This document shows positions 3,919 through 58,526 of a stretch of 64,000 bases of DNA, piece after piece. Made by a program: the position numbers and the translations under genes. Every line of letters starts with the position of its first letter. The first letter of the stretch is position 1. The stretch is from Escherichia phage vB_EcoM_ESCO56: sequence record OM386665.1. One strand, 5' to 3'. The notes below the pieces were generated by a model, which did not search any database, was not told the DNA's origin, and was given only the letters and a program-made list of their open reading frames with translations.

Positions 3919-3994
3919 TGGAGAATCCGAAGGGACTTGAACCCTTATAAACCTGTTTTGCAGACAGGCACATATCCATTTCTGTCACGGATTC
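3919..3994 (-). tRNA. tRNA-Cys (anticodon GCA)
   Basis: Hand-folded: acceptor GAATCCG/CGGATTC, anticodon loop CTGCAAA, T-arm AAGGG-TTCAAGT-CCCTT, discriminator U, encoded CCA. Confidence 0.8.
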
Positions 3995-3999
3995 AAAAT

Positions 4000-4092
4000 T
4001 GGAGGAAGATACCAGACTTGAACTGGTACACCGATTTCTCAGCTACTGGCAGTTTAGCAAACTGCTCCCTTACCTTTTAGGGTTAATCTTCC
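4000..4092 (-). tRNA. tRNA-Ser (anticodon GCU), class II with long variable arm
   Basis: Acceptor GGAAGAT/ATCTTCC, 3-bp D-stem, anticodon stem GCAGT/ACTGC with loop TTGCTAA, about 21-nt variable arm, T-loop TTCAAGT, encoded CCA. Confidence 0.7.
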
Positions 4093-4093
4093 A

Positions 4094-4828
4094 TTATCTT
4101 TGTAATGCGCTCTTCATTTCTGGTGTTGCAATAGTATCAATCACACCAGTTTTACAAGCATCATCAAACCAGTCTGGTAAGATACCTGCTAAGAACCCAT
4201 TGATATTCGTTTTAAGGTACTCTGCAATAAGGGCAGCTTCTTCTTCAATCATCTGCACAACTTCATCTGCATAAGCTGTAATCTTTGAGATACCTTCATT
4301 AATCTTACTAACAGCCTGATTAGCTAAATCAGAAATAGTCTCAAGACCCTCATCAATAGCGTCTTGTAAGTCACTTAACACACCGTTAACACTGTCTAGT
4401 GTGCTGTTAATCATGTCAATAGCTTGCTGACCATACTCTGTAGCAACACCCATAATACCACTAAATGGTGTACAACCAACTTGTTCTCCTGCTGCACCCA
4501 TAACATTGGAGTATCCCTTTGCTACCTGCATACGTGATGAAAACTCATCAATAGACTTTTGACCGTAGTCTGTTAGGGTCTTAGTAGTTGCTGTAGTGCT
4601 TGTAAGGCTTGTTGTAAAACTGTTTAGAAGGACTGTTGTAAGTCCAGCAGCAACAAGCTTCTCCTTCATTGTAGGGTCTGTTACAGAGCTAATAGAGCTT
4701 ACAAGTGATGTAGAGGCAGCTACGGTTCCACCGAGAACTGCTGCACCAGTAATAAGTGGGTTAGAAAACCCTCTACCGGTTTTTAAGAGATTAAAAATCT
4801 CCTTACCTTGTTCTGTCATCTCTTTCAT
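4094..4828 (-). CDS. hypothetical protein (Ser/Thr-rich, coiled-coil C-terminus)
   Basis: Track ORF 4094..4876 overlaps the tRNA at 4845-4923; trimmed to ATG at 4828 (MKEMTEQ...) with AAAGGTG RBS. Confidence 0.55.
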   Translation of the reverse strand: MKEMTEQGKEIFNLLKTGRGFSNPLITGAAVLGGTVAASTSLVSSISSVTDPTMKEKLVAAGLTTVLLNSFTTSLTSTTATTKTLTDYGQKSIDEFSSRMQVAKGYSNVMGAAGEQVGCTPFSGIMGVATEYGQQAIDMINSTLDSVNGVLSDLQDAIDEGLETISDLANQAVSKINEGISKITAYADEVVQMIEEEAALIAEYLKTNINGFLAGILPDWFDDACKTGVIDTIATPEMKSALQR

Positions 4829-4844
4829 TAAGCACCTTTGAAAT

Positions 4845-4923
4845 TGGTACTCCATATCGGATTCGAACCGATACATAACACAGATTTTAAGTCTGGCCTC
4901 TCTGCCAATTGGAGTAATGGAGC
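4845..4923 (-). tRNA. tRNA with anticodon UAA (Leu-decoding) but class-I length
   Basis: Acceptor GCTCCAT/ATGGAGT, Leu-like D-arm (3-bp stem, loop CAATTGGCAGA), anticodon loop CTTAAAA, short variable loop, T-arm ATCGG-TTCGAAT-CCGAT, A73, CCA. Confidence 0.65.
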
Positions 4924-4925
4924 AT

Positions 4926-5001
4926 TGGCGGGGGATGTTGGAATTGAACCAACTTCTTCGATTTCAAAGACCGAGGTTTTAACCTTGTAAACTAATCCCC
5001 T
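4926..5001 (-). tRNA. tRNA-Gln (anticodon UUG)
   Basis: Anticodon stem TCGGT/ATCGA with loop CTTTGAA, T-arm GTTGG-TTCAATT-CCAAC, discriminator G; 1:72 apparently unpaired. Confidence 0.75.
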
Positions 5002-5009
5002 TTAAATCT

Positions 5010-5567
5010 TTACTTTCTCAGTGGATGAATAAAGAATGCCAACATAACTCTTTCCCTTGAGAATGCTCTTTCTTCTGGGACAACGCTTTTTAGTTTCCAT
5101 CCAATATAAATTCTCCAGTAAAACTGTTTACCAAAGATTTTAATTGATGGGATAAAAGCGAATAATCCCCAAGCATTGCTATTCCACATTAGGAGATAAC
5201 CAGTCTGATTATCTTCAGGGTCAGAACTTACGTTGATATTACCTTTCCACTTAGTAACATCTTTTACATCTCTTCCTAATACATGGTAAGAGAAGTTATA
5301 AGCTTTGTTTCTCCAGAGCCATCCAACTCTCTGCATGTAGACACCCAGCTTACCAATCTCTCTAATCTTAGCCCAGCGTTTGACGTGGCCTTCATCACCA
5401 TCAATCGGGTTGTCATAGGTCTCCATCCATCTGAATCCAAAAGGTAGATGTCCTTTCTTCTCGCTGTAGAATGGAACCACGAAAGGTGCTAAGATGACTG
5501 CTAGGGTTGCTGCAAATGGTTCTAGTAAAGCTAGGAAAATCCATGAAGCATACTTCAAATATCTCAT
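5010..5567 (-). CDS. hypothetical protein (hydrophobic N-terminus, probable membrane protein)
   Basis: 185 aa ORF with AAGAGG RBS 9 nt upstream of ATG at 5567; N-terminal hydrophobic stretch WIFLALLEPFAATLAVILAPFVVPF. Confidence 0.6.
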   Translation of the reverse strand: MRYLKYASWIFLALLEPFAATLAVILAPFVVPFYSEKKGHLPFGFRWMETYDNPIDGDEGHVKRWAKIREIGKLGVYMQRVGWLWRNKAYNFSYHVLGRDVKDVTKWKGNINVSSDPEDNQTGYLLMWNSNAWGLFAFIPSIKIFGKQFYWRIYIGWKLKSVVPEERAFSRERVMLAFFIHPLRK

Positions 5568-5586
5568 CTAAATAGCCTCTTAAGAT

Positions 5587-5664
5587 TGGTGTTCCAAGAC
5601 GGATTCGAACCGTCACTAATACAAGGTTTGAGCTTGCATCCTCTGCCAATTGGGATACTGGAAC
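5587..5664 (-). tRNA. tRNA with anticodon CAA (Leu-decoding) but class-I length
   Basis: Acceptor GTTCCAG/TTGGAAC, D-arm TCC-CAATTGGCAGA-GGA, anticodon stem GCAAG/CTTGT with loop CTCAAAC, T-arm GACGG-TTCGAAT-CCGTC, A73, CCA. Confidence 0.65.
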
Positions 5665-5665
5665 A

Positions 5666-5740
5666 TGGTACTCACTAAAGGACTTGAACCTTTTTCTTCA
5701 TCTTGTAAGGGTGATGTTTTACCATATAAACTAAGCGAGT
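5666..5740 (-). tRNA. tRNA-Val (anticodon UAC)
   Basis: Acceptor ACTCGCT/AGTGAGT, D-stem GTTT/AAAC, anticodon loop CTTACAA, T-arm AAAGG-TTCAAGT-CCTTT, A73, CCA. Confidence 0.75.
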
Positions 5741-5835
5741 GTAGAAGAGGTCTGAAGTTGTGCCGCTAACTCAACTCCGTGGAATTTGTTACGGTCTTCA
5801 GTTGACACCAGCGGTCTTTCACTTGACCTCTGAAT

Positions 5836-5912
5836 TGGTGCTGCTCACAGGACTTGAACCTGCATTTCCATCCTTACAAGGGATGTGTAATAGCCAATTA
5901 TACGAAAGCAGC
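5836..5912 (-). tRNA. tRNA-Thr (anticodon UGU)
   Basis: Acceptor GCTGCTT/GAGCAGC, anticodon stem CATCC/GGATG with loop CTTGTAA, T-loop TTCAAGT, A73, CCA. Confidence 0.75.
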
Positions 5913-5919
5913 ATTAATT

Positions 5920-5996
5920 TGGTACACCTAGAGAGATTCGAACTCACACTGAGCAGATTCTAAGTCTGCTGCCTCTACCAGTTGGGCTATAGGTGC
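5920..5996 (-). tRNA. tRNA with anticodon UAG (Leu-decoding) but class-I length
   Basis: Acceptor GCACCTA/TAGGTGT, D-arm GCC-CAACTGGTAGA-GGC, anticodon stem GCAGA/TCTGC with loop CTTAGAA, T-loop TTCGAAT, A73, CCA. Confidence 0.65.
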
Positions 5997-6074
5997 ATTA
6001 AATCTTTTTAGAGAACTTCTAAGAACCTAAGCAACAAGGTTCCACAACAAGCTGTAATAACCTTAGAAGCCCTC

Positions 6075-6250
6075 TAAAAAGACCTAAAAAGGTCTTTGCA
6101 TAGTCTTGTTTAATCCGGTGACTAGAACCTTTGGAGAGCTTGATATTATCTCTTCTCCGTGACACCTGCTAGGTGCTTTATGAGTGTGTACGACAATACA
6201 CGCGGGATACCAAAGCAACACCCTAATGAAGCTTGGCTTTAAATCTTATT
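6075..6250 (-). ncRNA. candidate small structured RNA between tRNA genes, ending in an intrinsic terminator
   Basis: No tRNA fold found. Minus-sense sequence carries hairpins GTGTA-TTGTCG-TACAC, CACC-TAGCA-GGTG, GGAGA..TCTCC, then AGACC-TTTTT-AGGTCT followed by TTTT (6075-6096). 5' end not defined. Confidence 0.3.
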
Positions 6251-6253
6251 AGG

Positions 6254-6341
6254 CGGTAAGTAAAGGAGTCGAACCCTCACCGTATCTCTACAGTGGCAAC
6301 TGTTTTCAAGACAGTTTGGCTACCATTAGCCGCTACCTACC
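6254..6341 (-). tRNA. tRNA-Ser (anticodon UGA), class II
   Basis: Acceptor GGTAGGT/ACTTACC, anticodon stem ACTGT/ACAGT with loop CTTGAAA, about 20-nt variable arm, T-loop TTCGACT, G73; CCA not fully encoded. Confidence 0.7.
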
Positions 6342-6354
6342 CCTAATAAGACTT

Positions 6355-6437
6355 TGGCATGGGACGGAGGAGTTGAACCCCTTTGAAACGGTGTTGGAAG
6401 CCGTTGCTCATGCCTTAGAGTCTTAACATCGTCCCAT
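6355..6437 (-). tRNA. tRNA candidate, anticodon probably CCA (Trp); D region about 7 nt longer than canonical
   Basis: Acceptor ATGGGAC/GTCCCAT, T-loop TTCAACT, G73, CCA; anticodon register inferred from distance to T-loop (loop TTCCAAC); D-arm could not be folded canonically. Confidence 0.4.
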
Positions 6438-6580
6438 ACTATAATTCGAAGCTTACCGTATTATCTCAACACTGTAAAGCCCCTTCTCAGATTATTTACA
6501 TGTTCTGGAAAACATGAGATACAGACCACCTCCCTACAGGAAGACCCGCTTAGGTCGTCTAAGTAATCTGCTAACTAAAT

Positions 6581-6662
6581 TGGTCGAGGCGGCAGGACTC
6601 GAACCCGCATACTCCACTTACTCGGTTAACGTCTGTTTAGAAGACAGATGAGATACGCCCCG
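6581..6662 (-). tRNA. tRNA-like element (acceptor and T-arm present, anticodon-like loop CUUCUAA; no D-arm resolved)
   Basis: Acceptor CGGGGCG/CGCCTCG with one G-U, T-arm GCGGG-TTCGAGT-CCTGC, A73, CCA; only internal hairpin is TCTGT-CTTCTAA-ACAGA placed too far 5' for a canonical tRNA. Confidence 0.3.
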
Positions 6663-6910
6663 TAATTATCTTTAAAGACTCTCTTAGAAAGCCCTTAAAG
6701 ATGCCCACCTTATTAATCATACCGTGGGCTAGTACGCCAAATTCTTTGATGAGGGATTGGAAGACCTCACTGGTGTTTAGCCTATCAAGCTACTGCCAGA
6801 AAAACATTGTCGTTTGCATTTATTTTAAATTTGCAAAATAGACGCTACGCAACGAAAACTAAGGGTACTATAAAGTGGTCACATCACTATTCTGCTACAC
6901 TTCCATTAAA

Positions 6911-7050
6911 TTATCTTTGTAGATAAGCTACCCAGACTTGCTTAAGGTCTGTAGCGATGTGACTTTTTGGGTTTAAATCTAGAATTTACCCTTTCACCCT
7001 TTGTGGTCGCATACTCACAGGTAAGCTTAATAACTTATCTACAAAGATAA
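6911..7050. repeat. long inverted repeat (17-bp perfect arms, about 106-bp spacer) in tRNA-array spacer
   Basis: TTATCTTTGTAGATAAG at 6911-6927 is the exact reverse complement of CTTATCTACAAAGATAA at 7034-7050. Confidence 0.8.
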
Positions 7051-7098
7051 TTACCAGACCGTTGTTTATCATCTTAACTAGATATCTCATAAAGTGTT

Positions 7099-7186
7099 TG
7101 GTGTGCCGTGTAGGAGTCGAACCTACCGAGTCTCAATGACAAGGGATTTACAGTCCCCACCGCTACCATCTACGGGATAACGACAC
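7099..7186 (-). tRNA. tRNA-Tyr (anticodon GUA), class II
   Basis: Acceptor GTGTCGT/ACGGCAC, anticodon stem GGGGA/TCCCT with loop CTGTAAA, about 14-nt variable arm, T-arm GTAGG-TTCGACT-CCTAC, A73, CCA. Confidence 0.8.
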
Positions 7187-7255
7187 ATTTAATTTCTATT
7201 CAGGCTAAGGACTTGCACCTTACAAATCGGTGAGCAATCGCTTCTCTCCTGAATT

Positions 7256-7332
7256 TGGCGGTTAGTCAGGGATTCGAACCCTGTGCCATTCGCTTAACAG
7301 GCGACCGCACATACCTTATGTGCTTCCTAACC
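7256..7332 (-). tRNA. tRNA-Asn (anticodon GUU)
   Basis: D-stem GCAC/GTGC, anticodon loop CTGTTAA, T-arm CAGGG-TTCGAAT-CCCTG, G73, CCA. Confidence 0.8.
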
Positions 7333-7416
7333 ATGTTTAGTATTACCAGACCGTATCTTTCAATTTTTCCGCTAAAAATTTAATAAACATTGCTGTAAAC
7401 GGTCTTCTGTAAAATT

Positions 7417-7493
7417 TGGAGGCGGGTGCAGGAGTCGAACCTGCCGATACCATGCTAATGAGACATGTGAGACGCCCTTTCTCTATACCCGCA
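7417..7493 (-). tRNA. tRNA with anticodon CAU (Met, fMet or Ile2)
   Basis: Anticodon stem CATGT/GCATG with loop CTCATTA (position 37 is U, unusual), T-arm GCAGG-TTCGACT-CCTGC, CCA. Confidence 0.65.
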
Positions 7494-7623
7494 ATTCTTA
7501 ATGACCAGACCAAATCTCTTCTTTGTCCGATTTACCTTCAGATGAATAAGATTAAGTTTGCTGTAATTGGTCTTCTGTCAAAACTGGCGTTCCAGAAGGG
7601 ATTTGTCTACTGGAACATTAATT

Positions 7624-7700
7624 TGGTCTCTGTTGGAGGACTTGAACCTCCGGCCTTACCGCCCCAAACGGAACGCTCTACCAAGCTGAGCTAAACAGAG
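7624..7700 (-). tRNA. tRNA-Pro (anticodon UGG)
   Basis: Acceptor CTCTGTT/AACAGAG, D-stem GCTC/GAGC, anticodon loop TTTGGGG (G37), T-arm GGAGG-TTCAAGT-CCTCC, A73, CCA. Confidence 0.8.
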
Positions 7701-38607: not shown

Positions 38608-38923
38608 CTTGTTGTTCAGGTAAGTTCGCTAAGCTTACCCCGCTTTATTCAAGCTGCTTACTGTCGCCAGTAAGTCCAGACTATATCTTCTACTTATTTC
38701 TAAGTAGCGTACCATTTCGAGTCGCTTGACCCTACACCGCTACATTCATCACGGTTAGTCGTTCGGCATTTAGATGTACTCAAACTCATATTCGAAGTTA
38801 TTCGGTATGTAAGACTCCTACGTTGTATATTTTCTTACATCGTACATCATTTAGCACAGGATTGTCTACATCTGTAGAGTTTCCCTGTTTAGGCACGTTT
38901 TAGATGAGCTATAGAGCTTGTTA
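38608..38923 (-). ncRNA. group I self-splicing intron in nrdD (ORF-less)
   Basis: Separates two nrdD halves in different frames; contains P-like AACAGGGAAACTC, Q-like AATCCTGTGC, R-like GAACGACTAA and S-like AAGATATAGTC (R/S form GACUA/UAGUC P7); U before 5' splice site, G before proposed 3' splice site. Splice sites approximate. Confidence 0.7.
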
Positions 38924-40120
38924 ACCCATCGGTGAAATAACCTTACCAGAACGCTCAAAAGCCTCTGCTACAGCACCATGACCAGATACACTTAAGAAAT
39001 CTGGATACATTGCTTTAGAGCAACACTCAATGGCTTTACTGTACAGGTGTCCTTGACAGATATCCTCATCGTGTCTCTTCTGGTCATAAATATAAACCAG
39101 TTTAGGGAATACAACAGGCTTCTTGCTCTTACCTTGTCCATTCATACGAACATCTAGGAGAGTGCTCGCAATCATGTATTGCAGTCGGTTATCTTCATTA
39201 GACATATCTGAGTCAAGTAACCCGAATGTCAAAGTTGTGAATGCAAAATCCCCACGGCTACAAGGTACAGTATTTAGTTTCATTTCAAGTGACTGGAAAC
39301 CTTGAGTCAGTTCAATCTGTAGCTGCTCCATGACATAATTGTGGTAATGTTCTTTAGGAATACCATAAGATGCTGCTTTCTCAGCATGATAGCGTAGAGA
39401 CTTCTTAGCATACGGCACAAGTACCTTATCAATCTCTGCTAAAGTAAAACCACCAAATTGCTGTGCAGTTGCTGAAAGAACTACGTCACCAATAACCTGT
39501 AAGGCCGACAGTACAGACTTCGGTTCACAATATTCAATGCCAGACATTTCAAAGCCACCTTTCAGGACTTTACCAATGTCAAACAGACAACAGTTGATAC
39601 CACCAAAAATTAGGTCTCTTAAATCATGGATATAGATAAACCCTTTTTCAATGGCTTCAAGTTCCTCTGGTGTTAAATGGTACTGTTTAAAGATTTCTTT
39701 AGTCAGATAACCACGAATAATTGAGCCTTTTGTAGAAATTAAACTGCTGTCAAAGTTAGCATTCTCTCTGTCACCTAAGAAGAGTGTATCTTTGGTCTTC
39801 TGGTAAAGTTCATCCCAATTTTGAGCAACTTCTTTACGGTAATTTCTATATGTTGAGTAAGACTCATAAATCTCGTGGTTGACTTCTGCCAAAGCACCCT
39901 CAACAATACTGTGAATATCATTTACTGAAATGAGTAAATTATTCTGCTTAGTGGATTTTACCAGAACCCTCATAAATGCTGACTCAAGAGCTTGGGTAAC
40001 ATCTGGTGGAAGCTCTTTATAACCAACTCTGTTAGCTGACTTTGTGACTGCTGTTAAAACTTTTTTGATATCAGGTTCTTCGAGTGAGCCATTCTTTTTA
40101 ATAATCTGTACTTTGTTCAT
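38924..40120 (-). CDS. nrdD: anaerobic ribonucleotide reductase NrdD, exon 1
   Basis: 399 aa N-terminal part beginning with ATP-cone-like MNKVQIIKKNGSLEEPDIKKV; spliced product predicted about 714 aa. Confidence 0.8.
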
Positions 40121-45909: not shown

Positions 45910-46407
45910 TCAAGCACAATTTGCTTTCATTACCTTGTGGATTCTTTTTTCAGCATCTTCATAAGTTTCTTTAGTAATAAACTTAATTGCTGCAATGTTG
46001 GCATTGTAGAAGAGTCTGAGCTTAGAGTCAATCCTTTTTGTCATTACATCGAATTTATGTTGAAGGTTTGCTTCACCATAGACTAGGCCACCTTTTGTGT
46101 AGTAGGTCTGAATAATGTAAAAGTCAAAAAATTCTTTCCCAAAACTCTCAATATCTTTTTTAATATACTCAGAAGAAGTCTCGTAAGTCATCCAATCACT
46201 TTCCTTAGTGACTATCTTCTTCCGAATCTTCCCAGCAACTTTTCTTTTTGTCACACTGTTAAGGTGTTTCTTTCCGATATAATACTGTCCAGTCTTCTTA
46301 CAGTGTACTAAATAGACAAAACCAAAATGTTTAGTGGGGTCAACTTCCCCACATAAAGATACCCAATGACCATAGGTAGGGCAATTGCCAAATCCTTTAA
46401 TCTTCAT
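45910..46407 (-). CDS. GIY-YIG-like nuclease-domain protein (putative)
   Basis: 165 aa; GFVYLVHCKKTGQYYIGKK resembles the GIY-(10-11)-YIG motif. Confidence 0.45.
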   Translation of the reverse strand: MKIKGFGNCPTYGHWVSLCGEVDPTKHFGFVYLVHCKKTGQYYIGKKHLNSVTKRKVAGKIRKKIVTKESDWMTYETSSEYIKKDIESFGKEFFDFYIIQTYYTKGGLVYGEANLQHKFDVMTKRIDSKLRLFYNANIAAIKFITKETYEDAEKRIHKVMKANCA

Positions 46408-47437
46408 TCATACACGGCTCCCAATTATATTTCTTAAAAGTGAAATCGTCTTTCTTGTTTCTTTCCTGATAAGCTAAGAAAAAGTGTTGCTGCATTAACT
46501 CTAAAGGTGTTCTGGTGATTGTTTGACCATCCCACGAGACATAAGTGTATGACTCTTTCTTAGCATAAAGCTCATAAATTGCATCAAGACACTCTTTGTA
46601 GGTGGTTTTACCTTCAAGTGCTTTCATTACAGTAGCCTTACCAACGCCCTTTAAACCAAAATAATTATCCGCGTTATCACCAGCCACAGCTTGGTAACAA
46701 AGGAATTTAAAACCTACACCAACTGTCTTCTTAGCTTTTGGTGTTGATTTTATTGGGCAATCCCAAATTTCACCAACGTTGTTATCAGCAATGAAAATCA
46801 AAGGTGACTTTTCATAGGTCATATCGATGCAGTAAGTCCCTTCAGCTTGGCGAAGGTCTTTATCAATACTCATTAAGGCAGCCTTTTTACCCATCTTTTC
46901 AGCTTTAGCAATAACGATAGAGTCAGCTTCAAATCCATCAAGAATTAGTTTGAACTCTGGTCTGGATAAAAGATATTCACGACAAGCAACTAGGTGTGTT
47001 GGTGTGACAGCATCTTTGCGGTTACCTTGATATTGGTGCTCAAGACCTTTAATGTCTTTATGCTTATGCACACCTTTCTCTGTTAAATAGCCTACCCAAG
47101 TTCTCTCTTTACCAACAACCTTAAGCCATTCCTGAAGCACCTGTTGAGTAGCCATGATAGCTTCTTTTTCACTCTTAGCTTCTTTCCAAGTCTGTCTTTC
47201 CCATTCATCTTCATCAAATGTCAGGCCAAGCTCTTCCACAAGGATTCTCTGGTCTGCTAACCATCTTGCAGCATCTTTCGCATTATCAAATGGTTCAGAT
47301 TCTTCTGCTGTGAGTTTATTGACGTATTTATATTTTGCTTTCTCAACTACACAAGCGCCTTTATAGGCAATACTGTCAGAGTCAATAAAGACGTGTGTAA
47401 CTGAATCGGGAAGTTTTGTTAATGTGTACTTCTCCAT
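46397..47437 (-). CDS. 5'-3' exonuclease / flap endonuclease (RNase H-like, PIN plus H3TH)
   Basis: 346 aa; N-terminal HVFIDSDSIAYKGA and H3TH motif AVAGDNADNYFGLKGVGKATVMKAL. Confidence 0.8.
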   Translation of the reverse strand: MEKYTLTKLPDSVTHVFIDSDSIAYKGACVVEKAKYKYVNKLTAEESEPFDNAKDAARWLADQRILVEELGLTFDEDEWERQTWKEAKSEKEAIMATQQVLQEWLKVVGKERTWVGYLTEKGVHKHKDIKGLEHQYQGNRKDAVTPTHLVACREYLLSRPEFKLILDGFEADSIVIAKAEKMGKKAALMSIDKDLRQAEGTYCIDMTYEKSPLIFIADNNVGEIWDCPIKSTPKAKKTVGVGFKFLCYQAVAGDNADNYFGLKGVGKATVMKALEGKTTYKECLDAIYELYAKKESYTYVSWDGQTITRTPLELMQQHFFLAYQERNKKDDFTFKKYNWEPCMNED

Positions 47438-52622: not shown

Positions 52623-53045
52623 TTATTTCTCTCTCAGTTGGTTAAGTTTCTTTCTAGAACATTTTAAGTTTTCGGATGAAGAAAAGTCAAGTGTCTTTTC
52701 AGAACGTGGATAATAGTGCCTATCCCAAGAAGTTTCAACATCGTTAATCAGTGACGCTAGATTACACAGGTCTGTACCACTTTGCAACCTCTTTTTAAGA
52801 GAATCTAGTAAAGCAACTGTGTCTTTAGCTTTACGTCTTGCTGTAGCAACATCTTTCATATGCTCAAATACAGAGCATTTTAAGTCATCTTCATAGTTTT
52901 CAGACAACTCTATTTCATGTTGTATATCAACCATTCTCCTGTGATGGTGAGCATATTCCCGTTGAGCAGCAATGTCAAGTTCTTCCAACTTCTGCAAAGC
53001 TCTAACAAAGTCAGCTATGTCTGGGTGAACAAACATTTTCTGCAT
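52623..53045 (-). CDS. hypothetical protein
   Basis: 140 aa ORF. Confidence 0.55.
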   Translation of the reverse strand: MQKMFVHPDIADFVRALQKLEELDIAAQREYAHHHRRMVDIQHEIELSENYEDDLKCSVFEHMKDVATARRKAKDTVALLDSLKKRLQSGTDLCNLASLINDVETSWDRHYYPRSEKTLDFSSSENLKCSRKKLNQLREK

Positions 53046-53302
53046 GTAAGCCTCTTTTAAGTAACTATTAAGTTTTAATCTTTTATCTTAACGTATTCTA
53101 TACGTTATACTTTAAAGCTTTTTAAAAGCTATTAAATAATCTTTTAAGAGTTTTAAAGTATCTGTATAGTTAAACTGTTAAGTAACCTTTTAAGTAAAAA
53201 CCCACTTCGCAAAGATTAACACCTTGTCAAGTACATTGTCAACTTGCTTTTTATAATTTTTTGCAGTAATGTATGAGGTTAATGATTGTAGAGGGAGTAA
53301 AA

Positions 53303-56002
53303 ATGGAAAACGTAGATTTTAAAAACTTACATTTAGTTGGCGATACAGAAACTGATGGTTTGCTCCTTGAGTTCACTAAAGTGCACGTAATGGCTTTCGC
53401 AGACTATAAATCTGACGATGAAGAGCCACCTGTATGGGTCTTTACAGATGAGCCTATCCTCGGTCACAAGTACACTAAGTACCTTAAGGGTGGTTTACGT
53501 GAAGGTGTTGAGTTTGCGTTAAAGGCAAAACGTCTTTGCATCCATAACGGTCTAGGTTATGACTGGTGGGTTTTCAATCACATTGCACCTGATTTATGGA
53601 ACTTTGATAATCCAAAGTGTAAACCGTGGAGTAATTTCTTTCAGGATTCTCTCATCCAGTCTCGTGTTCAGTGGATGGATAGGCCAACTCCAAAGGGTTA
53701 TAAAGGTGCTCATGGCTTGGCTGCATGGGGTGCTCGTGTTGGTGTTCGTAAACCAGAGATTGAACATTGGGGTGTGTGGAATGCAGAAATCTTCACTCGT
53801 GTTGTAGATGATATCCGTATTAACGCCAAAACTAAACGGGCACTTGATAACGAGTATCTCAAGCTTAAGAAGTGTGGCATAGACACTTATGAAACCTACA
53901 TGCGAGCTAAAGAAACATCTTTCTGGATGAGTCAACAAGCTATCAATGGTTGGAAAGCTGATAAAGAGCTTATGGAGTTCCATGTGAAGGAACTTGACAA
54001 GTTGACTAATGAGCTTGCTTCAGAGGTTGAACCACATCTTCCTCCAACTATTAAGACCAAAGGTAAAGTCACTGGAGAAGAGTTTGCAAAAGCTTGGAAT
54101 GAGTATGTTGAAACATTTGGTCATGCAGATGGACTGAAGAGAATTACCAAGTACCCTAAGACAAAGTATCGTCAGCAGGTACGTAATGGTGAGATGCAGA
54201 CTTATGAAATCAAACCATTTGGTAAGCCAACTACAAAGATTTTTAACATTGAAAAGAGAAATTGCTATACACCAACCAACACTGTAACTGGTGAAGAGTA
54301 CAAGGAAGGTTTTGTAGCAATGAAGGATGCTCGTGCAATTTGCAATGAGTTGAATGCAAAGATTGGTAAGAAGTGCAAAGACTGGAAGCCAGTAAAAACA
54401 GTCAAAACTGTGAAGTATTATAACAGCCACGTTGTTAACCACTTTGAACTTGAGTCAAGTCGCTACACAGGTTTGATTGATGCACCATATACACCAATTG
54501 AGTTTGAAGTTTCTCGTATGACTCAGGTAGCAGTTGTTAAAGACTACTTGAAATCAGTTGGTTGGATTCCAGATGACTGGAACTACAAGAAAGACTCAGA
54601 TGGTCGCCCTGTCAAAGTTTGTCGTTTCAAAGACAATAAAAAGATGATTACAAAGCATCCTAAGTGGCAGGAAATGGTTGAGCGGTGTGGTTTGAGTTAT
54701 GTTGAACATGAAGGTGTCCAGTACATTGAGCATAACTGGTCTGTGAAGAAATACACAGATTTGCTTGAGCCTTGCTTAATCCGTACTTCACCAAAACTTA
54801 CTGAATCATCTTATGATACGATTGAAGGTGAACTTGGACAGAAGATTGCTAAATACTATACTTTGATGCACCGACGCAGAACTATTGAGAACTCAAAGGA
54901 TGATGAAAAAGGTTGGTTGAACCAGATTCGTCCTGATGGTCGCCTTAGTGCTGGTGCAATGGTGTTTGGTACTTCAACTGGACGTATGACACAATATGGT
55001 ATTGTAAACGTACCGTCTGGTGCTGCTGTCTATGGAGCGCCTATGAGGGAAGTGTGGACTTGTGAAGATGGTACAGATATCATCTCCGTAGACCAAAACT
55101 CAGCCCAGCTAGTTCTTCTTTGTAACTTTATGGGTGATGAAGACTTCACTAAAGCGGTAACTGAGGGTAAAGAGTCAGTAGAGTTCACTAAGCAAGATGA
55201 TGGCAGATACTACTGTAAGCATCTTGACAAGTATCTTAACCCAGAAACTGACAAGTATCTTCGTTATGATGCTGAGAACGACCTCTATGAAGTCTACACA
55301 GGGACTGATGCGCATACACTGAACAGTATTTACTTTGGTCTGAACAAGGAAGAAGATATTGTTCGTTGTAGGGAGACACAGGATGAGGAACTTCTTCACG
55401 AGATTACAAAAGGTCGTAAGAAGAGCAAAAATGGCATCTACGCCCTGTTATTTGGAGCCGGAGACGAGAAGTTTGCAAAAACTATCAAGGCATCATCTAC
55501 GGAAGAAGGTGCATTGACTAAACAAACTTACTTTGTGCGTCTACCTAAGATTAAAAAGCTGCTCGATAGACTAGAGGAAGACTTCAAAGCAACTAAGAAA
55601 GCACTTGAAGAGGTTTTTGGAAAAACTTCTGCAATTGCCAAAGGTGGTTATATCAAAGTTGCTGGAGCGTGGTTATGGTGTAAATCTCCACATAAGTTAT
55701 TAAATTTCACACTTATGGGCAGTGAGGCGCAGGTGCAGAATGAGGGTATTAACTTGGCTAACAGAGAGTTAACAGAGCGCAAGCTTACAGTCCTAAATGG
55801 TCGGAAACCAGCTATTGGTGCTAGATGGGTCTGTAGTTACCACGACGAAGTTTCTTTAGAGGTTCCAACAAAAGATGTACCAGATGTTAAGGAGATTATT
55901 GATAGAATGTATGGTCAAGCATCAAAAAATCTTGGATTAAAGAGTAAGACGCTTGTTACAGGCACTGGTAAGGTAGGTAAGACATGGTACGCCGTACACT
56001 AA
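53303..56002 (+). CDS. DNA polymerase, family A, with 3'-5' exonuclease domain
   Basis: Track ORF 53273..56002 trimmed to ATG at 53303 (GAGGGAG RBS); Exo I motif LVGDTETDGL; polymerase motif C VCSYHDEVSLEV. Confidence 0.9.
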   Translation: MENVDFKNLHLVGDTETDGLLLEFTKVHVMAFADYKSDDEEPPVWVFTDEPILGHKYTKYLKGGLREGVEFALKAKRLCIHNGLGYDWWVFNHIAPDLWNFDNPKCKPWSNFFQDSLIQSRVQWMDRPTPKGYKGAHGLAAWGARVGVRKPEIEHWGVWNAEIFTRVVDDIRINAKTKRALDNEYLKLKKCGIDTYETYMRAKETSFWMSQQAINGWKADKELMEFHVKELDKLTNELASEVEPHLPPTIKTKGKVTGEEFAKAWNEYVETFGHADGLKRITKYPKTKYRQQVRNGEMQTYEIKPFGKPTTKIFNIEKRNCYTPTNTVTGEEYKEGFVAMKDARAICNELNAKIGKKCKDWKPVKTVKTVKYYNSHVVNHFELESSRYTGLIDAPYTPIEFEVSRMTQVAVVKDYLKSVGWIPDDWNYKKDSDGRPVKVCRFKDNKKMITKHPKWQEMVERCGLSYVEHEGVQYIEHNWSVKKYTDLLEPCLIRTSPKLTESSYDTIEGELGQKIAKYYTLMHRRRTIENSKDDEKGWLNQIRPDGRLSAGAMVFGTSTGRMTQYGIVNVPSGAAVYGAPMREVWTCEDGTDIISVDQNSAQLVLLCNFMGDEDFTKAVTEGKESVEFTKQDDGRYYCKHLDKYLNPETDKYLRYDAENDLYEVYTGTDAHTLNSIYFGLNKEEDIVRCRETQDEELLHEITKGRKKSKNGIYALLFGAGDEKFAKTIKASSTEEGALTKQTYFVRLPKIKKLLDRLEEDFKATKKALEEVFGKTSAIAKGGYIKVAGAWLWCKSPHKLLNFTLMGSEAQVQNEGINLANRELTERKLTVLNGRKPAIGARWVCSYHDEVSLEVPTKDVPDVKEIIDRMYGQASKNLGLKSKTLVTGTGKVGKTWYAVH

Positions 56003-56487
56003 CACTTCAAGATTACAAGGATAATTTTATTTACGACCCCGACAAAGGGGTCTTCTACAACAAGTATGACAGGAATAGGCAAGCTAAAGCTGGTCAGGTT
56101 GCCGGAGGAAGTGATGCTTATGGTTACAGGGTACTTAAATTCAAAGGTGTTGTAATAAAAGTACATCACCTTGTTTGGTGGTTTGAGCATGGTTACAAAC
56201 CTACTAAGATGATAGACCACATTGATGGTAATAGGAGTAATAACCACATTTCTAATCTTAGAGAGGCCGATAAATATGGAAACGCTCAAAACAGAGTAAA
56301 GCAGACGACTAACAAATCAGGTTACAAGGGTGTATATTACTTTAAAGACTGCAATAAGTGGAGGGCAGCTATAACATGCAGAGGTAAAAGGACATCACTT
56401 GGTTTATTTGACACACCTGAAGAAGCCCATAAAGCTTACTGTGAAGCTGCTGTAAAACTCCACGGAGAGTTTGCAAAACTAAGTTGA
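55984..56487 (+). CDS. HNH homing endonuclease with AP2-like DNA-binding domain
   Basis: 167 aa; HHLVWWFEHGY...IDHIDGNRSNNHISNLR (HNH) and YKGVYYFKDCNKWRAAITCRGKRTSLGLFDTPEEAHKAY (AP2-type); overlaps the last 19 nt of the polymerase gene. Confidence 0.8.
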   Translation: MVRRTLTLQDYKDNFIYDPDKGVFYNKYDRNRQAKAGQVAGGSDAYGYRVLKFKGVVIKVHHLVWWFEHGYKPTKMIDHIDGNRSNNHISNLREADKYGNAQNRVKQTTNKSGYKGVYYFKDCNKWRAAITCRGKRTSLGLFDTPEEAHKAYCEAAVKLHGEFAKLS

Positions 56488-56538
56488 CAAGGTGCTCAGG
56501 GAAGAGTACCTTATACTATATCTTATATAGGAGGGCTT

Positions 56539-56757
56539 ATGACACTTTCAGAGATTGAAGTTCAGTTGCAATGTGCTGGTTATTCTCAAAAAGAGATTGA
56601 AGGGATGTTTATTGTTCTTTGCAGTGGTTCCAGAAATTTGAAGGTAAGTCCTGAATTTCTGCGTAGAGTAGATATCTTTATTGCTGGAGGCAAAATTGCA
56701 AAAGACAAGACAGGGTACTTAAAAGGTGAGCGTGTAAATATTGAGAGTTTACTATGA
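56539..56757 (+). CDS. hypothetical protein, paralog A
   Basis: 72 aa; shares C-terminal motif GKIAKDKTGYLKGERVNIESL with ORF 56945..57178. Confidence 0.55.
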   Translation: MTLSEIEVQLQCAGYSQKEIEGMFIVLCSGSRNLKVSPEFLRRVDIFIAGGKIAKDKTGYLKGERVNIESLL

Positions 56758-56963
56758 GCCACCGTGGAAGAACCCATGCAGCGATGATGAAAGGTGCTTC
56801 AAAGGAAACTATCAAGAACCGTAAGCAGAAGTTGTTTGAGAGAATGAACAGGTTAATTGGCAATTCATCTCTTTCAGGTTCTGAGAAGGTTTTCTTGAAA
56901 GGTAATCTGAAAAGCATTGCACAAGAACTTATTGACATTGAGTATTGGAGACATCAAAAATGA
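56754..56963 (+). CDS. hypothetical basic protein
   Basis: 69 aa ORF between the two paralogs. Confidence 0.45.
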   Translation: MSHRGRTHAAMMKGASKETIKNRKQKLFERMNRLIGNSSLSGSEKVFLKGNLKSIAQELIDIEYWRHQK

Positions 56964-57178
56964 CACTTGCAGATGTTATTCAGCAACTTCACGACAATTG
57001 CTATACTCAAGAGATGATTCAGGAGATACCCATTGTAGTGATGCCTAGTAAGTTCGTAAAAACTTTTAATGGTGACTCTTTAAGGGCTGCACATATCCTT
57101 ATTGTTGACGGCAAGATTGCAAGAGACCGTACAGGAGTCCTTAAGGGCGAACGTATTAATATTGACTTATCCTTTTAA
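56945..57178 (+). CDS. hypothetical protein, paralog B
   Basis: 77 aa; C-terminal GKIARDRTGVLKGERINIDLSF. Confidence 0.55.
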   Translation: METSKMTLADVIQQLHDNCYTQEMIQEIPIVVMPSKFVKTFNGDSLRAAHILIVDGKIARDRTGVLKGERINIDLSF

Positions 57179-57187
57179 GGGAAAACG

Positions 57188-57394
57188 ATGGAAGTCCTAG
57201 TAAACTATACCTATCGTTATGATGTTGTTCACTCCACTACAACCGTAGCTCAACGTAATCCAATCGTCCCACGAGAAGGTGAGTTTGTTCGCATTGAGGG
57301 TTGGACTTACACTGTGGAAAGCATCATTCACAAGTTTGATGTTGCTGGTGATGTTCAAGTTATCGACGTAGAGATTGGTGGTAAGAGAAAATGA
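57188..57394 (+). CDS. hypothetical protein
   Basis: 68 aa ORF. Confidence 0.45.
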   Translation: MEVLVNYTYRYDVVHSTTTVAQRNPIVPREGEFVRIEGWTYTVESIIHKFDVAGDVQVIDVEIGGKRK

Positions 57395-58491
57395 CAACAC
57401 TGTACAAACAAAATAAAGATGGCTCTTTCAACGTCTGGTCATGCGTTGCTGTAGGTGACAAAGTTATTACAACCTACGGTAAAGAAAATGGCAAGATGAT
57501 GTTTGAAGAGTACACAGCAGAACCTAAAAACATCGGTAAAAAGAATGAGCGTAACGCTGAACAGCAAGCTCTCTTTGAAGTTGCTGCTAAGTATAAAAAG
57601 CAAGTTGACCGCAAAGGTTACGCTTACACAAAAGAGTCTGCACAGAATACTGAGAAGGTAGGTGTACAGCTTGCTCATGATGCTGCAAAGGTTAGCCATG
57701 CAAAGTATCTGAAGTTCCCTGCTGATGCTCAACCAAAACTTGATGGTGTACGTTGTAGAATTTCAAGAGATGCTGATTCAGTTAGCTTCACAGCTTATTC
57801 TCGTGAGAATACTGTTTACAACGTTCCAGCAGAACTAATCCCAGATTTGCTTTTGTTGCTTAAATTACATCCACAAGTTGAAGACTTTGATGGAGAGATT
57901 TATGCTCATGGTTGGGACTTAGAAGATATTGTGTCTATGATTAAGAATGCTGACAATCCAGACCGTCACCTTCTTAAATTCTACTGGTATGATATCTGTG
58001 ACAATTCAAAATCTTGGCCTGAGCGTCGTGAAGTTATTGATAACTCACCCATTGTTGAACTTGGGGATACCTGTAGAGTTGTTCCTGTACAGACTGTCCG
58101 TGTAAATTCTTGGGAAGAGTTTGATGAAGCTCATGATAAGTGGGTTGAAGCTAAGTTTGAAGGTGCAATGTACCGTTCAATCTCTGAAGACTCCTTCTAT
58201 GAGTGTTGTCACCGTTCATACTTCTTGATTAAGCACAAGAAGATGCACACTGAAGAGTTTAAAGTGACTGGTGTCAAGACCGATAAGCGTGGTCATGGTA
58301 AGTTCGTTGTAGAGACTCTTCCTAACGTCTTTGTAGATGTCTCATGGAAGACTACTCATGAGAAGAAACAGTATCTTGCTGAGCATCCTGAAGAGTTTAT
58401 CGGGAAGCCTTTAACGGTACAGTTTCAGAAGATGACTCGTAAGGGGTCTTTACAGTTCCCTGTTGGGCTAGTTATTCGAGATTATGAATAA
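57391..58491 (+). CDS. ATP-dependent DNA ligase
   Basis: 366 aa; motif I KLDGVRC, motif III FDGEIYAHG, motif IV EGAMYRS, motif V LIKHKK. Confidence 0.8.
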   Translation: MTTLYKQNKDGSFNVWSCVAVGDKVITTYGKENGKMMFEEYTAEPKNIGKKNERNAEQQALFEVAAKYKKQVDRKGYAYTKESAQNTEKVGVQLAHDAAKVSHAKYLKFPADAQPKLDGVRCRISRDADSVSFTAYSRENTVYNVPAELIPDLLLLLKLHPQVEDFDGEIYAHGWDLEDIVSMIKNADNPDRHLLKFYWYDICDNSKSWPERREVIDNSPIVELGDTCRVVPVQTVRVNSWEEFDEAHDKWVEAKFEGAMYRSISEDSFYECCHRSYFLIKHKKMHTEEFKVTGVKTDKRGHGKFVVETLPNVFVDVSWKTTHEKKQYLAEHPEEFIGKPLTVQFQKMTRKGSLQFPVGLVIRDYE

Positions 58492-58498
58492 AAAGTTG

Positions 58499-58526
58499 TT
58501 GACATAGAAAATTTGGTGAGTATACT
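58499..58526 (+). promoter_or_regulatory. sigma70-type promoter (TTGACA-N16-TATACT)
   Basis: -35 at 58499-58504, -10 at 58521-58526; nearly 350 nt of ORF-free sequence follow. Confidence 0.6.

Follow-up and report, generated by a model that had tools for sequence, protein, structure and literature searches.

A probable HNH-AP2 homing endonuclease gene at a polymorphic site behind the DNA polymerase gene of the Felixounavirus vB_EcoM_ESCO56

The DNA polymerase gene of Escherichia phage vB_EcoM_ESCO56 is overlapped at its 3' end by a small open reading frame (ORF) whose product carries an HNH nuclease domain and an AP2 DNA-binding domain. This arrangement raises the question of whether the ORF is a functional mobile gene, a relic of one, or a gene that serves the phage in some other way. 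We addressed this question in the window, that is, the whole stretch of 64,000 nucleotides (nt) analyzed from sequence record OM386665.1, with all positions counted from its first letter. We assign this 64-kb sequence to the genus Felixounavirus (Felix O1-like myoviruses); positions 53000-58500 are 98.2% identical to Escherichia phage vB_EcoM_ESCO45 and 96.7% identical to Salmonella phage Felix O1. Based on comparative sequence analysis, we estimate a probability of about 0.8 that the ORF at 55984-56487 (+), lodged behind the Felixounavirus polymerase gene, encodes a functional homing endonuclease of the free-standing HNH-AP2 kind.

The ORF has an ATG start and a TGA stop and encodes 167 amino acids (aa). 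Pfam identified an HNH_3 catalytic domain at residues 59-101 (56158-56286, +; 47.2 bits with a cut-off of 24.8, E 1.7e-12) and an AP2 domain at residues 112-161 (56317-56466, +; 41.7 bits with a cut-off of 33.3, E 1.4e-10), while the whole ORF matched phrog_99, annotated as "HNH endonuclease", with an E-value of 5.7e-66. These matches, whose scores greatly exceed what chance would give, bear out the original prediction, made from the letters of the sequence without database searches, of an HNH endonuclease with an AP2 domain at this position. The nearest solved structure by sequence was that of SPO1 I-HmuI (PDB 1U3E, E 4e-5), whose DH...N...N motif, made up of an Asp followed by the catalytic His, a structural Asn, and a distal Asn as metal ligand, aligned to D78-H79, N91, and N100 of the endonuclease, and the C-terminal part of the protein had weak matches to structures of the plant AP2/ERF proteins WRI1 (E 3.7e-4) and ERF096 (E 6e-3). 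Since Pfam, PHROG, and the GenBank annotation agree, we consider the family assignment settled. The gene is 99.6% identical at the DNA level to the "homing endonuclease" gene of ESCO45 (ESCO45_00052) and 94% identical to an "HNH endonuclease" gene of Felix O1, with 95% identity between the proteins of the latter pair, and we assign it as the ortholog of Felix O1 ORF95 (Felix01p176, NP_944955). The gene is therefore already known and annotated in Felix O1 and in many relatives, and there is nothing new in its identification.

The family-A polymerase gene is uninterrupted at 53273-56002 (+), as determined by its ORF and its matches to Pfam DNA_pol_A and PHROG, although its start in annotated relatives is an ATG corresponding to 53282. 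Its stop codon, TAA, is at 56000-56002, and 19 nt are thus shared with the endonuclease ORF, in agreement with the position that had been predicted. The start of the endonuclease is fixed because an in-frame TAA at 55978-55980 directly precedes its ATG. That ATG is created inside the last codons of the polymerase gene, where the polymerase C-terminus reads KTWYAVH in this phage vs. KSWYEVH in alleles that are empty of the endonuclease gene, and it is preceded by the Shine-Dalgarno-like sequence AAGGTAGG. A scan of 55700-56800 for promoters and terminators returned no more candidates than a shuffled control, with no terminator and no sigma-70 consensus promoter at the TTGACA that adjoins the end of the gene. 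As there is no promoter or terminator consensus between the two genes, the endonuclease gene is probably cotranscribed with the polymerase gene.

One line of evidence that the gene is mobile comes from its site in related phages. Our survey of this site covered 35 related loci (5 + 2 GenBank records and 28 IMG/VR contigs) plus the present phage. In ESCO49 and in UAB_Phi87 the polymerase stop is separated from the next gene by a conserved 61-nt spacer only, and alignment with these two phages and 12 metagenomic loci, the comparison that had been proposed for defining the site, set the limits of the insert to the base. The insert proper is 481 nt (56003-56483, +) and, by alignment and anchor analysis, stands in place of the 6-nt TTAGTA of the empty alleles. 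The empty allele reads ...AAGAGCTGGTATGAGGTACACTAATTAGTA directly followed by TTGACAAGG, i.e., ...AAGAGCTGGTATGAGGTACACTAA TTAGTA TTGACAAGG..., and the filled allele reads ...AAGACATGGTACGCCGTACACTAA-[481 nt]-TTGACAAGG..., so that the insert lies between the polymerase stop and the conserved TTGACAAGG. The endonuclease stop codon falls within the conserved TTGACA. The 50 nt after the endonuclease gene (56484-56537, +) open with TTGACAAGGTGCTCAGGG and show 90-98% identity across all relatives, those with an empty site as well as those with a filled one.

The site was empty at 14 loci (ESCO49, UAB_Phi87, and the 12 metagenomic loci) and was occupied by the same type of endonuclease gene as in the present phage, which we term type A, at eight loci plus the present phage. 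A further 12 loci together had one of three other types (B, C, and D), and two loci were not typed. The original prediction had named presence of the ORF at this site in all relatives, or lack of profile support for an HNH fold, as grounds for abandoning it; the empty alleles and the HNH_3 score are the opposite of both. Each of the representatives tested of types B, C, and D matched HNH_3 and AP2, the AP2 match of type B (26.1 bits) being under the Pfam cut-off. Proteins of types B-D share 39-49% identity with the type A protein of the present phage, and no variation is seen among the four types at residues D78, H79, N87, N91, L92, R93, and N103. All types end at one junction, and their last 60 nt are 83-100% identical to type A, falling to 30-50% further upstream; this shared 3' end with divergence upstream of it points to recombinational replacement among the types. 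In GenBank, the polymerase-ligase region was found in 263 phage records and some match to the gene in 157, suggesting that about 40% of relatives have an empty site, and 17 records had the full type A gene. Such presence and absence of an endonuclease gene among relatives is ordinary for large lytic phages. We also considered a role in packaging, as for HNH proteins encoded beside terminase genes, and rejected it, as this gene is in the replication module and is missing from many relatives.

A second line of evidence is the polymerase gene itself. Over its 5' 1.6 kb it shares 95-98% identity with all Felixounavirus loci, whereas its 3' 0.9 kb is 95-98% identical to type A loci only and 72-76% identical to most others. 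In an identity profile the diverged stretch strictly linked to type A extends over 54983-56002 (+), its left edge being approximate: from about 54983 the identity to non-type-A genomes drops from 95-100% to 54-86% and is lowest (54-63%) at 55683-55882, while type A genomes stay 87-100% identical throughout the gene. Identity of at least 90% over 55560-56002 was found in only 17 of 293 phage records, the same number as have the full type A gene. The polymerase protein encoded in the diverged stretch is 78% identical to that of ESCO49, gap-free, and has kept the motif C sequence YHDE. In the 5' part of the polymerase gene, the nearest neighbor of six of the eight type A loci was a locus of another type, indicating that the type A cassette sits on different backbones. 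A haplotype resembling that of type A at about 55080-55480 is also present in types C and D and in one empty locus, where it does not continue further downstream, and this partial sharing implies further recombination inside the diverged stretch. We read the diverged 3' stretch as a putative co-conversion or immunity tract. Presence and absence at an exact site, a patchy distribution, and a linked diverged flank form together the pattern that would be expected from homing with co-conversion.

If the gene does home, its cycle would be as follows. Translation of the endonuclease would probably begin at its own ATG, which sits in the final polymerase codons downstream of AAGGTAGG. During co-infection with a relative that does not have the gene, the AP2 domain would bind the DNA of the relative, which the HNH domain would nick or cut in or beside the polymerase 3' end. 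Recombinational repair from the genome of the carrier would then copy the endonuclease gene along with the adjacent polymerase 3' end, and the carrier would be protected, both because its own polymerase 3' sequence has diverged and because the junction is disrupted.

Several points weigh against this reading. Our literature search found no published cleavage assay for this endonuclease or any Felixounavirus ortholog. Among the putative catalytic residues, N100, which aligned to an Asn of I-HmuI, is replaced by Ser in some types, and N103 by contrast does not vary, making the identity of the metal ligand (N100 or N103) uncertain. An AlphaFold2 single-sequence model of the endonuclease had a mean confidence (pLDDT) of 38.9 and was unusable for a fold search, and because of this failure the assignment of the fold is based on sequence profiles. 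The linkage between type A and the diverged polymerase 3' end was verified directly in the eight type A copies, and the two sets of 17 records were matched by count. Among the 293 phage records, a search for a donor lineage that has the type A polymerase 3' end but not the endonuclease gene gave no result; Erwinia and Hafnia relatives, seen in this search, are about 66% identical over this region. Moreover, a single ancient mosaic recombination event, passed on by descent, could account for the linked diverged stretch in place of repeated homing.

A different concern is whether the gene still has any function at all. Homing endonuclease genes commonly decay after fixation, and the finding of this type in 17 records only might suggest an inactive or decaying remnant that is passively carried, its polymorphism reflecting an old insertion and losses. 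We consider this quite improbable, as all eight of the type A copies examined are full length without stop codons, with ratios of nonsynonymous to synonymous substitution rates (dN/dS) of 0.03-0.25 at dS values of up to 0.49, and as catalytic residues have been kept across types with as little as 39-49% identity. The same strong purifying selection is what would be expected if the protein mainly served the phage, with homing secondary, either by excluding the markers of competing Felixounavirus phages or as an AP2 regulator of downstream early genes. Some phage homing endonucleases do double as repressors or exclusion factors (I-TevI and the T4 seg genes, for instance), and a role of this kind could also accommodate the maintenance of four types at one site and the fact that the gene ends exactly at the 50-nt conserved intergenic region that opens with TTGACA. 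However, about 40% of relatives manage with no gene at the site, which marks it as dispensable; the TTGACA had no promoter in the consensus scan; and if markers are excluded by cleavage, the mechanism is that of homing. A primarily phage-serving role is therefore unlikely in our estimation, though somewhat less so than a decaying gene.

Relatives of this phage suggest yet another possibility, as in 107 phage records the polymerase gene is split within motif B (IYA/LLFGAG) by a group I intron, at a position corresponding to 55445/55446 in the intronless gene of the present phage. The intron is either ORF-less and 268 nt long (Rfam, 62 bits in locus L035) or about 800 nt with an Endonuclease_7 ORF; examples are L035:3281-3564, L062, L063, and L030-L034. 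The endonuclease might then act in trans on the motif B site, some 555 nt upstream, and mobilize the ORF-less intron, a collaborative form of homing for which a precedent has been reviewed (PMC2790892, PMC3984707). The diverged stretch of type A does span the intron site, and an HNH-AP2 gene follows the polymerase gene in at least 30 of the 45 listed carriers of the ORF-less intron. Yet this co-occurrence (at least 67%) was judged no higher than the base occupancy of about 60% (157/263), and since it does not exceed the base rate, collaborative homing is not supported. In addition, some loci of types A and C have the intron and others do not, the present phage has the endonuclease gene and no intron, and the strongest divergence is 250-450 nt downstream of the intron site. 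We regard this possibility as very improbable indeed, the least plausible of those considered here. A broader, joint reading deserves tentative mention, as we think it doubtful but better placed than any of these three: the locus might be a multi-allelic site at which at least four divergent HNH-AP2 types swap by paired crossovers, one falling within the polymerase gene and its partner within the final 60-90 nt that the AP2 coding regions have in common. Each type would come with a cleavage-resistant allele of the polymerase 3' end, driving diversification of the polymerase C-terminus, including the region of motif C, and the whole might interact with the motif B intron.

The functional homing endonuclease thus remains our preferred reading, and it was part of a wider proposal that selfish elements are actively moving through the replication module. 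Two other elements had been named in its support, an intron in nrdD and a putative nuclease with a GIY-YIG-like motif, and they fared differently. The nrdD intron is real. Rfam Intron_gpI (RF00028) matched 38657-38981 (-) with 53.5 bits, just over the gathering score of 50, and alignment with intronless FO1a delimited an ORF-less group I intron of 316 nt at 38608-38923 (-). By Pfam, the ORFs flanking it carry the N- and C-terminal halves of NRDD, and at its borders T is the last nucleotide of exon 1 and G that of the intron. The intron is polymorphic: it is absent from Felix O1/FO1a, is ORF-less in the present phage, and has a 426-nt insertion with an HNH ORF, falling after the position corresponding to 38803, in Si3, UAB_69, and Alf5 (loci used in this comparison: L064 and L065).

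The GIY-YIG gene is also real, although it is on the minus strand (45910-46407), which the original prediction had left unstated. Its 165-aa product matched SegE_GIY-YIG (PF19835) over residues 21-138 with 96.4 bits (cut-off 25, E 1.8e-27) as well as phrog_447, and the motifs GFVY (29-32) and YYIG (42-45) are seen in the translation. The protein has no second Pfam domain and no evident DNA-binding domain, and a PDB sequence search with the ORF gave chance matches only and no relative. NCBIfam returned no family for this protein or for the HNH-AP2 protein, and a phmmer search of all ORFs of the 64-kb sequence found no paralog of either nuclease. At least 190 of 237 relatives have the gene in this position, with an identity like that of the backbone, and it is often annotated as "NAD synthetase". 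Neither the separate DNA-binding domain nor the variable presence that mark a homing endonuclease was seen, and we classify it as a conserved backbone gene that is not evidently mobile. Because it is conserved in this way, it adds no evidence of current traffic.

Beside the GIY-YIG gene, an exonuclease gene (46397-47437) overlaps it by 11 nt (46397-46407, minus strand). The junction of these two genes is interrupted in phages VpaE1, VSe102, HMD-P8, and FG1m by an HNH endonuclease gene of about 490 nt and looks like a second hotspot for endonuclease insertion.

Downstream of the HNH-AP2 endonuclease gene is a pair of small paralogous genes (56539-56757 and 56945-57178, +) that match phrog_4230 (E 1e-35 and 3e-39) and have no assigned function. 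The copy number of the phrog_4230 genes, and of small genes between the polymerase and ligase genes, varies among relatives independently of endonuclease type. The DNA ligase gene (57391-58491, +) is intact, and many relatives, among them skuden, radambza, momo, and tootiki, are annotated with two "DNA ligase" coding sequences. Elsewhere in the window there is a cluster of 11 tRNA genes at 3922-7700 (-), as expected in a Felix O1-like phage. Three GenBank records under other host names, GU169904 (Staphylococcus phage SA1) and MG065664 and MG065668 (Campylobacter phages A132 and A126), contain Felixounavirus DNA with 94-97% identity and are probably chimeric or contaminated assemblies.

Beyond annotation the finding matters little, since the gene is a textbook case of a free-standing homing endonuclease and its genus is known to have many of them. 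One practical consequence is that the last ~1 kb of the polymerase gene and the region downstream are unfit as Felixounavirus phylogenetic markers because they are recombination mosaics. The locus does offer a natural series at one site (an unoccupied state, endonuclease genes of four types, and a polymerase intron that may or may not have an ORF) that could be used to study endonuclease replacement and target co-evolution, a modest lead for specialists.

Among known systems, the closest HNH core with a solved structure is that of I-HmuI (1U3E) from Bacillus phage SPO1. I-HmuI is a nicking enzyme that is also tied to a phage polymerase gene, but it is encoded inside a group I intron and has DNA-binding modules other than AP2, whereas the present gene is free-standing and has an AP2 domain. 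Felix O1 ORF95 and ESCO45_00052 are the present gene at an identical location, and each likewise shares 19 nt with the polymerase gene. The phages differ in that the nrdD intron of the present phage is missing in Felix O1, whose genome is reported to be free of introns and to have six HNH endonuclease genes (PMC3185647). Magnani et al. (2004) are cited in PMC5318435 for the description of AP2 domains in the HNH endonucleases of "Bacteriophage Felix 01", and Barth et al. (2023) noted that HNH-AP2 endonuclease genes of the ICP1-like subclass (IPA-HNH) are most often near polymerase genes (PMC10448857). The present gene shares with this HNH-AP2 family (Magnani et al., 2004; ICP1-like IPA-HNH) an N-terminal HNH domain, a C-terminal AP2 domain, and a free-standing position beside an essential replication gene. 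However, the ICP1-type HNH domains diverge too far to be recognized by Pfam HNH_3 (PMC10448857), which the present protein matches directly. Similarly, the T4 HNH protein MobE and the GIY-YIG Seg proteins are encoded by intergenic genes beside conserved genes of nucleotide metabolism or replication, and the free-standing endonucleases of T4 spread by cleaving endonuclease-less relatives and co-converting flanking markers (PMC2790892, PMC2988022). MobE and the Seg proteins differ from the present endonuclease in their DNA-binding domains and in belonging to another phage lineage, while the GIY-YIG gene of the present phage matches only the catalytic domain of SegE and is fixed in its genus.

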